Positions 3,001-9,000 of a stretch of 27,405 nt of DNA are shown here, piece after piece. The DNA lies in the NCBI GenBank assembly GCA_044868695.1, contig JBIOWP010000018.1, positions 1 through 27,405 on the forward strand. The letters run 5' to 3'. A program made the position numbers. This DNA comes from a bacterium. GTDB taxonomy: Bacteria; Sysuimicrobiota; Sysuimicrobiia; Sysuimicrobiales; Kaftiobacteriaceae. How positions within the stretch are numbered: the first letter of the stretch is position 1; the number at the start of each line of letters is the position of its first letter.

Positions 3001-6000
3001 GCTCGACCGGCATCAGCGAGCACGAGATTGTCACCGAAGGCTACCAGGAGCTCACGCATCCGGGGGTGTTTCTCCGCTTCCCGCTCGCCGGCCACGCCGG
3101 CCGGGCGCTGCTGGTGTGGACGACGACGCCCTGGACCCTGACGAGCAACGTCGCGGCGGCGGTGCATCCCGACCTCACGTATGCCGTTGTCCGCGCGGGA
3201 CGCGACGAGCTCGTGCTCGCCGAGGGGACGCTTGGCGTGCTGCAGGGCGACTATGCCGTCGTCGAACGGCTCCCCGGCAGCCGGCTGGTGGGGTTGCGCT
3301 ACCAGGGCCCCTTCGACGATCTGCCGCCGCAGCAAGGTCTCGAGCACCGCGTCATTGCGTGGAAGGATGTCGGTGCGGAGGAAGGCACCGGCATCGTGCA
3401 CATTGCGCCCGGCTGCGGGGCCGAGGACTTCGCGTTAAGCAAGGAGCACGGGCTGCCGGTGATTGCCCCGATCGACGAGTTCGGCATCTTCACCGCTGCG
3501 TTTGGCTGGCTGGCCGGTAAGCGGACGGACGACGCCGCGCAGCCGATCATCGACCACCTGCGCACCCGGGGGGTGCTGTACAAGGTCGAGCCCTACACCC
3601 ACCGCTACCCCGTGTGCTGGCGCTGCGACAGCGAACTGATCTTCCGGCTGGTGGACGAATGGTTCATCGCCATGGACCCGGTGCGCGCGCCGCTCATGGA
3701 GATCACCACGCGCATCCGCTGGTTCCCCGCGTTCGGGCTGGACCGCGAGCTGGACTGGCTGCGCAACATGCATGACTGGATGATCAGCAAGAAGCGCTAT
3801 TGGGGCCTGGCGCTGCCGATCTACGAGTGCGCGCAGTGCGGCCACGTGGAGGTCATCGGATCGGCGGAGGAACTGCAGGCGCGCGCCGTCGACGGGTGGC
3901 AGGTCTTCGAGGGCCACACCCCGCACCGGCCCTGGGTGGATGCGGTCAAGATCGCGTGCAGCAAATGCGGGTCGGCGGTGGCCCGGATTCCCGACGTGGG
4001 CAACCCCTGGCTGGACGCCGGGATTGTGCCGTTCTCCACCACGGGGTACCGGACCGACCCGAAGACCTGGCAGCAATGGTATCCGGCGGACTTCATCACC
4101 GAGAGCTTCCCGGGCCAGTACCGCAACTGGTTCTACTCGCTGCTGGTGATGGCCGCGGTGCTCGACGGCCGGGAGCCGTTCCGCACGTGTCTGGGGTATG
4201 CCCTGGTGCGCGACGAGCGCGGCGAGGACATGCACAAGAGCAAAGGCAACGCCATCGAGTTCAACGAAGCCGCCGACCGCGCGGGCGTGGACGTCATGCG
4301 CTGGGCGTACTGCGTCCAGAATCCGGCAAGCAATCTGAACTTCGGATACGCGCTGCTGGATGACGTGCGCCGCCGGTTTGTCATCCCCTTGTGGAACGTC
4401 GTCAGCTTCTTCATCACCTACGCGAACCTGGAACAGTACGACTTTGCGGCGCTGGTGCGCCGCCGGCCTGCGTTGAGCGTCCTCGACCGGTGGCTCCTGT
4501 CGCGGGTGAACCGCCTGGCGGCGACCGTCCGTGAGCGGATGGACGCGTACGATCCGGTGGGGGCGAGCCGCCCGGTCGAGACGTTTGTGGACGATCTCTC
4601 CAACTGGTATGTGCGGCGCAGCCGCCGGCGATTCTGGAAGAGCGAGGATGACGGCGACAAGCGGGCCGCCTACTACGCGCTGTATCACGCGCTGCGCACC
4701 CTGTCCCTCGTGCTCGCGCCGTTCGTGCCGTTTCTGGCCGAGCGCATCTACCAGACCCTCGTCCGCCCGGTAGAGCCCGACGCGCCCGAGAGCGTCCACT
4801 TGTGCGATGCGCCTGAGGCAGACCGGGCGCAGCTGGACGAGCCGTTGGAGGTGATGATGGACGGCGCGCGGACGCTGGTCGCCCTCGGCCGCGCCGCGCG
4901 GGGCCGCGCCCGCATCAAGGTCCGCCAGCCGCTGCCGGCCGCGCTGCTGGTGACCCGGCACCGCCAGATCCGCGACCAGCGTGAGCTGCTGGAGTACATC
5001 GCTGACGAGCTCAACGTGAAGGCCGTCCGGTTTGTCGACGATCCCAGCCGCTACGTCTCGTTTGAGATCAATGTGCGCTTCGATCTGCTGGGGCCGCGGC
5101 TGGGCGCCCGGGTGCAGGAGGCGGCGCGGGCGGTCCGGTCCCTGGATCCCACTGCCGTGCTGCGGACCCTAGAGCGTGACGGCCGCCTCAGCATCCAGCT
5201 GGACGGGGGTGAAGTAGTGCTCTCCCGCGAGGAGGTGGTCGCGCGGATGCACGAGGCGCAGGGGTACGCCGCGGAGGGCCAGGCCGGTGAGTTCGCGATT
5301 CTCGAGACCGCCCTCACCCCGGACCTCGTCCTGGAGGGACAGGCCCGGGAACTGGTCCACAAGATTCAGACTCTGCGCAGGGACGCCGGCCTGGCCGTCG
5401 ACGACCGCATTCGAGTGTTCCACGATGGGGGCCTCGGGCCAATTTTGGAGGCTCACCGGGCATATGTTCAACGGGAGACCCTCGCCGTCGAGATCCGGCA
5501 GGATGCCGGCCAAGCGCAGCACGACCTGCGGCTGGACGGCCGGCAGGTGCGGGTCGGGATCGTCAAAGCAACGCGTCCGGCCTAGGGGATCCTGCAGCAA
5601 GTGCGAGGACCCAAGATGCATTGCGAATTGCGGATTGTGAATTGCGAATTTGGGTACAGGGAATCGTTCTTCAATTCGAAATTCACAATGCGAAATTCGA
5701 AATCGCCGTTTCGACGTCGCAGCCATCGGAGCATGGAATGACCCAGAAAGTGATCGGTGTGGTTGGGGGTCTGGGCCCGTGGGCCACCCTCGATCTATTC
5801 GAAAAGATCCTGCGCTTGACGCCGGCCCAGACGGATCAAGATCACCTGCGGATCGTGATCGACAACAATCCCAAGGTCCCGGATCGGTCGCCCGCCATCC
5901 TGGGACAGGGCGCAGATCCCACCCCGGCACTGGTGGCCACCGCACAGAACCTAGAGCGGGCGGGGGCGGACTTTCTGGTGATTCCCTGCAACACCGCGCA

Positions 6001-9000
6001 CTATTTCTTTGACCGGATCCAGTCCGCCGTGTCGATTCCTGTCCTGCACATCATGACCGAAGTCGCCGCCGCGGCCCGGAAGGACGTGCCGGAGGTTCGG
6101 GCGCTCGGCGTGCTGGCCACCGCGGCGACGATGGCCTCGGGTCTGTACCATGAGGCCTGCGGGCGGGAGGGGATGACGGTGATCGGCCCGGACCAGAGCG
6201 GGCAAAACGCCGTCAATCGCGCGATCTACGGCGTCAAGGCCGGCCGCACGGGCCCGGACGTGACGCGGGGCCTGGTGGGCGTGGCCGAGGGCCTCGTGGC
6301 CCGGGGTGTGCAGGCGATCGTCTTAGGCTGCACGGAGCTTCCGTTCGTGCTGAAGCCGCAGGATGTGCGCGTGCCGCTGCTGGATAGCAATCTTATCCTC
6401 GCCCGGGCCGCCGTCCGCCTGGCGACCGAGACGCCCGCACCGGCGAAGGCCCGCGCGTAGCCCGCCCAGCGCTACAGGATTTTCCTGTGCGGCCGCTACT
6501 TGCCAATGGAGGGGTCATCGGATACACTACCGACAGCCGAAAGCGCCACGCACGTGTGTACGGCATGATCGGAACCGGTCGCAGTGATGCCGTGTCTCGC
6601 CGGGGACAGGAGGATCCTGCATGGCACCAAAGACGGTGAAATCCCGCAGCAAGCCCGCGGCGCGCCAGCGCACAGGCCGACCGGTCGCGCGACTGCGCTC
6701 GGGACAGGTGCGAAAGCCTGCCGCGGTCGCCACCCGCGTGGCCCCCGCCCCAAAGCCCTTCAAGGGGAAGCTGCTCAGCAAGCGCGAGGTTGCCGAACTG
6801 CGGCAGATGCTGGAGTTGGAGCGGGACCGCCTCATGGACGAGCTGGAGGCGATGGAGGAGCACACACCCGAGGTCGAAGAGCAGGTCGGGATGGACATCG
6901 GGGGCGGGTACGACGAAGATCTCGCCGATGTGGCCAGCGTGACCTTCGAGCGCGAGAAGAGCGTGGCGCTGGAGTCCAGTGTCCAGCAAACGCTGTCGCA
7001 GGTGGAAGAGGCGCTGCAGCGGATCGAGGACGGTTCGTATGGCCGGTGCCAGCGCTGCGGCAACCCGATCGACTACGCCCGCCTGAAGGTGCTGCCGTAC
7101 GCGACGCTGTGCATCCGGTGCAAAGAGCTGGAGGAGAAGTCGGTCCGCTGATCGGCGTGCCGGCGCAGCGAGTCCGTGCTGGAGGGATCACCGCCGCGGT
7201 CGTGGCGGCGGATCAGGCCCTCAAAGCAGTCCTGGTGCACAGCGTCCCCCTGGGGACGTCGATTCCCATACTTCCAGGGATCCTGAGCCTGACGCACGTG
7301 CACAACTCCGGCGTCGCCTTCAGTCTGCTCCCGCAGGTGCCGCTGCTGGTCCCTACGGCTATTGCCTTGACCCTGATTGTCCTGCTCTTCTACAATGAGG
7401 CGCGGTGGGTGCGCCAGAGTCGGGCGCAGTGGGCGCTGTCACTGCTCTGCGGCGGAGCTCTCGGCAACCTGATCGACCGGTTCCGCCTGGGAGCGGTGAT
7501 CGACTACATCGACCTGCAGGTCTGGCCGGTCTTCAACCTGGCGGACGTCGCCGTCACCACCGGTGCGGCGTTGCTGATGCTTGCGCTGTTGAGCCGCCCA
7601 GACGCTACATCCCAGGTCCGAGGTGACTGATGAAACCGATCCTCTTCCAGCTCGGGCCCTTTCCGATCTCCTCGTTCGGCTTGTTCCTGCTGCTGGCATT
7701 CGTGGTCGGCATCGCGATGGCGCGGCGACGGGCCGCCGTCCTGGGGATCACGCCGCCGCAGATGCTGGACATCGCGCTCTACATGATCATCGGCGGGATC
7801 GTCGTCGGCCGCCTCGGATACGTCGCGGTCAACCTGCAGACGTTCGCCCAGGAACCCCTGCGGATTCTCACCATCTGGCAGGATTCGGGTCTGGTATTTT
7901 TTGGTGCCCTGATCGGCGGCGCCGCGGTGGCGGTGCTGTCCGCCCGGGTACGGCAGATCCCTGTCCGCCGGTTTCTTGACGTCTTTGCTCCGGGCCTGGC
8001 TGCAGGGTACGCCGTCGCGATGCTCGGCGCCCTCCTGCACGGGTTGTATTTGGGCCGCCCGACTACGGTGCCATGGGCGGTCCAGATGGTCTTTGAACAG
8101 CGGCATCCGACGCCGATCTACCTGCTGATCGCCTCGGTGGGCACCTATCTTGTGCTGCAGGCGCAGGAGCGACGCACGACCGGGGATGGAACACTCTTCT
8201 TTCTGTGGCTCCTGCTGCACGGGGTCACGAGGTTTGCCGTCGAGTTCTTCGTCGAGAGCCCTCCGGCCGTGGGACCACTGACGTTGGCCCAGATTGCCAA
8301 CCTCCTCGCCGCCGCCGCGGCGGCGGCCGGGCTGGCGCTGACCCTACGTCCACAACCGGAGCCGGTGATGCAGCATCCCGTCGAGTAACGGGACGAGAGA
8401 GCATCATATCTACTTCGTCGACGCCGCCCACGCGGGCACTCGTCTCGATGCCTTTCTGACCGCGCACCTGCGTGCTCATTCCCGCTCTCGCATCAAAGCT
8501 CTGGTCGAGGGCGGGTTCGTCACGGTGGACGGCGCTCCGGCCAAACCCGCGTTGCATGTGCGCCGGGGGCAGCGGATCGAGGTTGTCGTCCCGTCGCCTC
8601 CGCCCGCCGCCGTCACGCCCGAGGCCATTCCGATCGACGTCGTGTATGAAGACGCCCACCTGCTCGTGGTGAACAAGCCGCCGGGGCTCACCGTGCATCC
8701 GGGGGCCGGGCGGTCGTCGGGGACGCTCGCCAACGCGATTGTCGCCCGCGTGCCGAATCTGAGGGGCGTGGGGGGTCCGCAGCGGCCGGGCATTGTGCAC
8801 CGGCTCGACAAAGACACCTCGGGCCTGATGGTGGTGGCCAAAACACCTCAGGCCTACCACGCGCTGCAGGCGCAGGTCGCCGGACGGGCGATCGGTCGTA
8901 CGTACCTGGCCCTCGTCAATGGGGTTGTGCCGGACGATGAGGGGATCATCGCTGCACCGATCGGCCGCCACCCGCGCCATCGCACCAGGATGGCCGTGGT

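Follow-up and report, generated by a model that had tools for sequence, protein, structure and literature searches.

How does a bacterium with a full peptidoglycan pathway obtain D-glutamate when the glutamate racemase MurI is missing? The question is raised by a racemase gene in the window analyzed here, the complete 27,405-nt contig JBIOWP010000018.1 of assembly GCA_044868695.1 (Sysuimicrobiota, Kaftiobacteriaceae). A genome-wide survey's note had proposed this gene as the best candidate for the D-Glu source.

MurI is missing although D-Glu is needed

D-Glu at position 2 of the peptidoglycan stem is described as strictly conserved in a passage of PMC5885031. Of the 94 phylum genomes searched with the MurI model TIGR00067, which detected 9 of 14 controls, a single one (G081) had a match above the cut-off, located on a contig of 2,019 bp; the 54 high-quality genomes had none. 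The survey's claim of a missing MurI hence holds for 93 of the 94 genomes. Its usual slot before rph-rdgB is empty as well, the order there being amidase, MBL hydrolase, rph and rdgB. MurT was present in 5/5 genomes tested, and in 4/4 tested genomes that lack the racemase. Because of this, and because the MurD subtype of the phylum shares an operon with a true MurI in two other lineages (see below), the need for a D-Glu source other than MurI stands.

A full mur pathway without MurI is also the setting of the known bypasses, namely Dat, MurD2/MurL, chlamydial DapF and RacD. To our knowledge, every one of them has brought new enzymology to light. The phylum differs from the first two. Dat was above the cut-off in 0/60 genomes and the Aminotran_4 proteins carry mostly BCAT-type motifs, which argues against Dat as the source. 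MurL was likewise above the cut-off in 0/60 genomes, with one partial match in the unpublished G016, on a contig of 2.4 kb; it is this match on which the sensitivity of the search rests, as the control set holds no MurL and was negative. This speaks against the MurL pathway; the survey had likewise listed no MurL. Furthermore, Glu197 of MurD2 corresponds to His in the MurD of this genome.

The racemase gene and its operon

The racemase lies in the gene order ileS-racemase-dksA-like-lspA-lgt-rluA-pyrR, with the following features in the window.

2301..5585, forward strand: ileS, 5′ neighbor of the racemase (TIGR00392, 683.6 bits; cut-off 621.4)
5623..5703, no strand: AT-rich run in the gap from ileS to the racemase, with seven GCGAATT/AATTCGA-like heptamers
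5738..6460, forward strand: two-cysteine, cofactor-independent racemase of the aspartate/cysteate type (profile scores, alignments with 1jfl and with orthologs)
6621..7151, forward strand: DksA/YteA-like zinc-finger regulator (top models TIGR02890 and NF033459, both below cut-off)
7157..7630, forward strand, start approximate: lspA, signal peptidase II (TIGR00077, 101.8 bits; cut-off 73.95)
7630..8388, forward strand: lgt-like prolipoprotein diacylglyceryl transferase (TIGR00544, 86.9 bits, below the cut-off of 118.9)
8525..9939, forward strand, starts approximate: rluA-family pseudouridine synthase and pyrR, the end of the run (profile scores)

The heptamer run is the sole such cluster found genome-wide. 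The operon is a general housekeeping run, and no D-Asp transporter or regulator was seen adjoining the racemase gene.

The racemase ORF extends from an ATG at 5738 to a TAG at 6460 (240 aa), with a GGAG 6 nt 5′ of the start, and resembles the neighboring genes in GC and GC3. Its top structure match is the aspartate racemase of P. horikoshii (1jfl, E 1.7e-56 over 228 residues), and both catalytic cysteines are present, as the survey had reported: Cys82 and Cys194 of 1jfl align with Cys84 and Cys198. Arg48 and Lys164, which we take to be the residues binding the aspartate side chain, align with Arg50 and Lys167. These four residues are invariant in 24/24 orthologs. The two enzymes share the Cys pair, PCNTAH, the PDR arginine and the GVKAG lysine; they differ in that the gene studied here has a bacterial host and lies in the ileS-lspA housekeeping run. 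The label "archaeal-type" given by the survey is overstated, since the top family model is the bacterial cysteate racemase CuyB (NF052483, 258.7 bits; cut-off 190). The model asp_race (TIGR00035) was also passed (215.1 bits; cut-off 93.1), and TIGR00067 yielded 36 bits, below its cut-off of 146.65. With MurI the protein has Pfam PF01177 and the two-cysteine mechanism in common, but the DSG and PYG motifs seen near the N-terminus of the L291 and L304 MurIs are absent from it.

Judged by these alignments, the active site appears to be an unchanged aspartate-racemase pocket and the protein on its own would be an ordinary aspartate-type enzyme. Its two cysteines would, independently of PLP, take off and restore the α-proton of a short acidic amino acid; aspartate is the likeliest substrate and cysteate a probable second one, as membership in the family suggests. 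It is rather unlikely that the enzyme serves cysteate catabolism as a CuyB, together with an unlinked CuyA-like lyase on contig C120. As with Bilophila CuyB, the racemase is above the CuyB cut-off and the genome also carries a CuyA-like gene, CuyA being the top model of the C120 gene with 355 bits; a CuyB nearby is moreover given for only 668 of 1720 putative CuyAs in an excerpt of PMC11193023. Against this stand the CuyA cut-off of 450, which the lyase does not reach, and its occurrence in 5/5 racemase-less and 4/5 racemase-bearing genomes. Unlike in Bilophila, the racemase lies apart from lyase and transporter and shows no co-distribution with the lyase. Such a role is compatible with our preferred explanation given below and silent on D-Glu.

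Distribution of the racemase in the phylum

Among the 60 phylum genomes at least 90% complete, we identified an ortholog (E<1e-60) in 42, in all of them adjoining a dksA match (result tables compared by eye). In the aligned loci, dksA and lspA follow 3′ in 28/28 and ileS precedes in 26/28, so the fixed position between ileS and dksA-lspA noted earlier is confirmed. The constancy of this site in 42 genomes and the lack of an adjoining D-Asp transporter or regulator imply a steady role.

The eight genomes at least 95% complete that the survey had listed as lacking the gene do lack it. In total, the racemase is cleanly absent from 14 genomes (one, G016, unpublished), in which ileS adjoins dksA with a gap of 63–276 bp, compared to 1036 bp here. 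Thirteen of these, with the locus intact, have MurD, and none has MurI; the racemase is therefore not the general answer of the phylum. The racemase-less genomes fall at about three places in a quick MurD tree. Many relatives have lost the gene, and it is dispensable in several lineages.

As to the proposal that this racemase is the D-Glu source, what stands is the need for a source other than MurI; its attribution to this gene conflicts with the 14 genomes and the aspartate-racemase pocket. A narrower version, in which the racemase replaces MurI natively in its 42 genomes and the other lineages use another route, is conceivable but doubtful. The fixed position, the neighbor-like GC and GC3 and the missing MurI are in line with it, as is the aspartate racemase RacD of V. 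fischeri, which when overexpressed supplies D-Glu and rescues a murI mutant, according to part of PMC12502697. RacD is compared here by its activity. This version requires a substitute in about three lineages, but no replacement gene was seen near the dcw cluster-ileS region, ddl/dapF or alr of racemase-less genomes, and among the 50 genomes retrieved with the MurD pattern, only 4 carry an asp_race gene.

DapF and other shared enzymes

In view of the gene's place in a housekeeping operon and its dispensability in several lineages, we tentatively favor, at somewhat below even chances, that the aspartate/cysteate racemase provides D-Glu only in part or as a back-up, if at all, and that the main supply comes from an enzyme common to all members, likeliest DapF. 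The wall would still receive D-Glu via the unusual MurD of the phylum. DapF, encoded in a conserved operon with ddl and 3′ of it in 5/5 regions compared, was found in 59/60 genomes and would be the best single candidate by analogy with the bifunctional DapF of chlamydiae. It differs from the latter in having Ser in place of both Cys (7/7 sequences). Ser/Ser DapFs are active epimerases according to an excerpt of PMC13728532; Glu racemization by chlamydial DapF requires both cysteines, as a passage of PMC5885031 states. With the model for bifunctional DapF/Glu racemases (NF038284), DapF scored 86.8 against a cut-off of 350, and it lacks the Cys/Cys pair.

Three further points count against this explanation. 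One is the steady role implied by the constant site of the racemase. The presence of DapF is fully explained by the need for meso-DAP alone; the DNPR motif of MurE, which we take as a sign of meso-DAP addition, was found in 8/10 loci scanned. In addition, the MetC family (5/5) and Alr (5/5) are equally universal.

It is unlikely that a MetC-family lyase, Alr or a D-amino-acid transaminase annotated as BCAT makes D-Glu as a side activity. MetC enzymes are known to moonlight, and besides the universal MetC family and Alr, Aminotran_4 proteins occur in 60/60 genomes, with one gene each in the racemase-less G006, G020, G021 and G059. Under a scheme presumed to separate BCAT from DAAT motifs, 30 of the 32 Aminotran_4 sequences read have the BCAT-type motif 1, however, and DAAT motifs were seen only in L102 and L103; the motifs of G021 and G059, the two read among the four racemase-less genomes, are BCAT-type. 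The missing Dat points the same way. In favor of a transaminase, a title cited in PMC13631041 reports that T. maritima has a D-amino-acid transaminase route.

An unusual MurD

The larger result, stranger than the flagged racemase, lies outside the window. The sole MurD of the phylum is above the TIGR01087 cut-off, has the dcw position and keeps the catalytic residues, and appears to belong to a distinct clade with a remodeled N-terminal part and acceptor site. Like canonical MurD it retains Lys115, Glu157, His183, Lys198 and Thr321 (E. coli numbering). A model of another clade member, P0136, used in place of this genome's MurD and informative on the fold only, is MurD-like, and its top Foldseek matches are all MurD. 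Unlike canonical MurD, the clade has an N-terminal insertion with three conserved His (in 50–53 of 54 sequences), and GNDR and SNRQL stand in for GGNIG and SSFQL. Arg replaces Phe161 in 51/54, Asp/Glu replaces Ile139 in 49/54 and Gln replaces Pro72 in 51/54. A quick tree leaves the monophyly of the clade undecided.

These clade-specific changes around the acceptor site might point to a MurD without need of free D-Glu, which ligates L-Glu, inverted by itself or another enzyme, or D-Asp made by the racemase. We consider this quite improbable. This genome's MurD has Leu at Lys319, and E. coli MurD K319T accepts L-Glu, as described in part of PMC8788868; position 319 is variable among canonical MurDs too, however. 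In the D-Glu site of this genome's MurD, Thr321 and the Ser415 loop are kept; Lys348 aligns with Pro/Arg in the phylum. MurD motifs do not differ between racemase-bearing and racemase-less genomes. The same subtype also occurs in one operon with a true MurI at L291 (228 bits) and L304 (220 bits; cut-off 146.65), which weakens the idea that the variant generally takes a different amino acid; no MurI was seen within loci L297, L299 and L345. Since it can share an operon with a true MurI, this first subtype probably still adds D-Glu. A predicted MurD-racemase complex returned no answer (score 0.00).

A second MurD subtype and its cassette

A second subtype, differing from canonical MurD by a remodeled C-terminal loop and a three-gene cassette, was found in Dormibacterota, Anaerolineae and several other phyla. 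MurI was present in 0/47 genomes with this subtype. Its gene lies beside one for a threonine-synthase-like PLP enzyme in 67/77 loci and for an NlpC/P60 hydrolase in 64/77, at times with a D-glutamate-cyclase domain. In searches of the 60 phylum genomes, the PLP profile reached a best E of 1e-52, compared to ≤1e-108 for true orthologs, and the NlpC profile gave partial matches only, in G000 and 5/5 relatives. Absent from the phylum by these searches, the cassette does not qualify as the substitute in racemase-less genomes.

In mostly open-access main texts, we found no description of the MurD clade, the cassette or the missing MurI of the phylum. The NlpC/P60-MurD-PLP cassette is a candidate for an undescribed D-Glu route. 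We give about even chances to the broader reading that the cassette is a new route to stem-peptide residue 2, that the MurD clade marks mostly MurI-less lineages, and that here the aspartate-type racemase or the serine-type DapF is the native stand-in. On this reading, the PLP enzyme would either act as a bacterial glutamate racemase of a new kind or synthesize a non-standard residue that has a hydrolase of its own. A whole phylum and a set of other lineages known only from metagenome bins are without MurI and have one unusual MurD in common. The candidate lists are short, with four genes for the phylum and a single PLP enzyme for the cassette lineages, and can be tested by complementation of a D-Glu auxotroph.

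A conserved racemase gene between ileS and dksA

The gene under study encodes a fresh member of an already known amino-acid racemase family.

5738–6460, + strand, racemase gene, 240 aa product

Against NCBIfam models, the protein scored 258.7 bits for the cysteate racemase CuyB (cut-off 190) and 215.1 bits for asp_race (cut-off 93.1), and stayed under the MurI cut-off with 36 bits (146.65). The nearest structure is the aspartate racemase of P. horikoshii (E 1.7e-56). Cys84/Cys198 align with its Cys82/Cys194, and Arg50/Lys167 with its Arg48/Lys164, a pair presumably holding the aspartate side chain; all four residues are unchanged in 24 of 24 orthologues. 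According to the available part of PMC13631041, this family works by two-base inversion at the alpha carbon without a cofactor. GC and GC3 of the gene agree with those of the adjoining genes. Orthologues were found in 42 of 60 phylum genomes, and each adjoins dksA, which bears out the fixed position claimed in the genome-wide survey's note.

The ileS-racemase gap contains an AT-rich run of seven related heptamers (5623–5703), found nowhere else in the assembly and possibly an RNA hairpin element. Further along the window, the top model for 12745–13587, within a run between yicC and a coaC-like gene and priA, is the archaeal-type cytidylate kinase TIGR02173, over cut-off.

Loss of the racemase in a phylum lacking MurI

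The phylum is probably CSP1-3/Sysuimicrobiota, close relatives bearing the labels 'Armatimonadota bacterium' or 'ANGP1'. The following cell-wall genes are located on two other contigs.

Contig C87, murE, murF, mraY, murD, ftsW, murG, murC, murB
Contig C94, MurT-like and GatD-like genes, both below strict family cut-offs

The survey had also reported that MurI, the usual source of D-Glu, is missing from the phylum and that its slot at rph is empty. Both statements held: the MurI profile, with which controls ring in 9 of 14 cases, was over cut-off in just one of 94 phylum genomes. This sole match (L049; G081, contig C27) lies on a 2-kb contig and may be a binning contaminant. Neither MurL nor Dat was over cut-off in any of 60 phylum genomes. 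A partial MurL-like match (L051; G016, contig C160, unpublished) is located on a 2.4-kb contig of a heavily fragmented genome.

Eighteen of the 60 genomes had no racemase. Two of these are assembly gaps (G003, G025) and two undecided (G004, G014), leaving 14, of which G016 is unpublished. In these 14 the ileS-dksA gap measures 63–276 bp, compared with 1036 bp in the window. MurD and DapF were each detected in 13 of the 14, MurI in none, and MurT in all four tested. In a quick MurD tree built from 32 phylum rows, genomes without the gene sit at three separate positions, namely G059, G022 and a clade of 11 rows. The stretch from the division/cell-wall (dcw) cluster to ileS showed no gene peculiar to racemase-less genomes (five plus G059, compared with four others).

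Because these clean losses come with MurD (in 13 of the 14) and no MurI, the phylum as a whole does not depend on the racemase for D-Glu. What stands of the survey's proposal, which made this gene the best candidate source of D-Glu, is a possible contribution where the gene is present. There the racemase could add to the D-Glu supply, by analogy with the V. fischeri aspartate racemase RacD, which, in the accessible text of PMC12502697, rescues a murI mutant when overexpressed and contributes little in the wild type. That it is the main D-Glu source in the genomes carrying it appears unlikely to us.

Shared candidates for D-Glu supply

Our tentative reading, which we put slightly short of an even chance, is that the racemase acts on aspartate or cysteate and that D-Glu comes mainly from a shared enzyme, DapF first; the substrates of all enzymes discussed are putative. 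DapF is present in 59 of 60 phylum genomes, and dapF lies downstream of ddl in all five regions compared, three of them racemase-less. Ser replaces both Cys in 7 of 7 DapF sequences. Such Ser/Ser enzymes are active DAP epimerases (PMC13728532, in part). A Glu role is weakened because chlamydial DapF requires both cysteines for it (PMC5885031, available sections) and because the score for the bifunctional model was 86.8 against a cut-off of 350. In the window's own genome (G000), the conserved operon GntR-ddl-dapF-phosphoglycerate mutase is located at L383 8135–10465 (contig C144).

MetC-family and Alr genes were each found in five of five genomes tested. The Aminotran_4 genes, save those of G034 and G009, carry motifs that we take to be BCAT-type under an assumed motif scheme. 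A third, divergent Aminotran_4 gene of G000 (L046 9017–9973, contig C142), with all family scores far below cut-offs, is patchily distributed within the phylum. Presence of a CuyA-like (cysteate lyase-like) gene does not track that of the racemase. On contig C120 of G000 (L382 4250–10674), alr is followed by genes for a prephenate dehydratase, a 5-oxoprolinase-like carboxyltransferase-domain protein, a CuyA/DcyD-like lyase and a peptidase C26, an order mostly kept in three relatives.

A distinct clade of MurD ligases

Together with its MurD, the MurI-less pathway is a new variant on a known theme. The motifs GK(F/Y)T, (P)HHLDDH-type and EDSL(A/G)TN occur in the phylum's MurD at 30 of 30 loci, and 57 of the best 150 relatives (50% clustering) carry the motifs of the clade. 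Fifty-four clade MurDs over 400 aa were set against 83 canonical sequences, using E. coli numbering. Clade members have N-terminal His at Val9 (53/54) and Met34 (53/54) and an inserted His (50/54), Gln at Pro72 (51/54), Asp/Glu at Ile139 (49/54), an inserted Arg (50/54) and Arg at Phe161 (51/54). These substitutions group near Gly73, Asn138 and Phe161, positions that contact the acceptor or product-site inhibitors according to the portion of PMC9780078 available. The catalytic core is retained, and one member is predicted to fold as MurD (pLDDT 95). In this phylum's MurD (L040 13567–15039, contig C87 of G000) the P-loop has Phe after Lys (Tyr in G059), at the position of E. coli Ser116, an ADP contact.

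Two subtypes are distinguished by a C-terminal loop. Subtype I includes the window's phylum along with low-GC lineages, some of which carry the label Patescibacteria; among loci with flanks, it lies mostly within dcw. We infer that it still adds D-Glu, mainly because its gene run at L291 and L304 also encodes a true MurI, two to three genes further upstream. A changed substrate of this ligase is disfavoured by the same MurI genes.

Subtype II MurD and its gene cassette

Subtype II loci were collected from 89 genome loci with a degenerate pattern designed to avoid the window's phylum. As this pattern caught 20 of the 57 representatives of the clade, sampling is incomplete and weighted towards Dormibacterota, and kin among the loci are not independent. 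From 80 flanked loci we dropped L144 (canonical MurD), L199 and L203 (both subtype I), yielding 77. Of the 77, 67 have a gene for a threonine-synthase-like PLP enzyme next to that for MurD, 64 have an NlpC/P60 neighbour and 58 have the two together; nine loci include a D-glutamate-cyclase-like domain.

MurI was found in none of 47 subtype II genomes (completeness not given; G103 unpublished) and in one of the 50 pattern-derived genomes searched, that of L144. The variant is the sole strong MurD match in subtype II genomes, which also have other Mur ligases. Among pattern-derived genomes, asp_race was detected in 4 of 50 and DapF in two of five. Of seven subtype II genomes without an adjacent PLP gene, five encode a clear orthologue elsewhere.

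The PLP family is over cut-off of no named model. The structures it matches best are threonine synthases (E 5e-34); serine and aspartate racemases sharing that fold rank lower. Both the PLP and NlpC families of the cassette are absent from the window's phylum. The literature searched gave no account of the cassette, and the available parts of PMC11962464 and PMC10608941 are silent on it; we consider it the part most worth following.

Cassette loci (L140–L219, e.g. L192 8098–12397 and L151 8451–12119) occur in many phyla without MurI. Fusions of NlpC with MurD or with a D-glutamate-cyclase-like domain occur in some, and P0161 combines MurD and the PLP enzyme in one protein. At L183 (277–2325), a racemase-glycosyltransferase fusion lies immediately upstream of an NlpC-MurD pair; with PEVCAH as its first motif and GCAEL as its second, this racemase may be degenerate.
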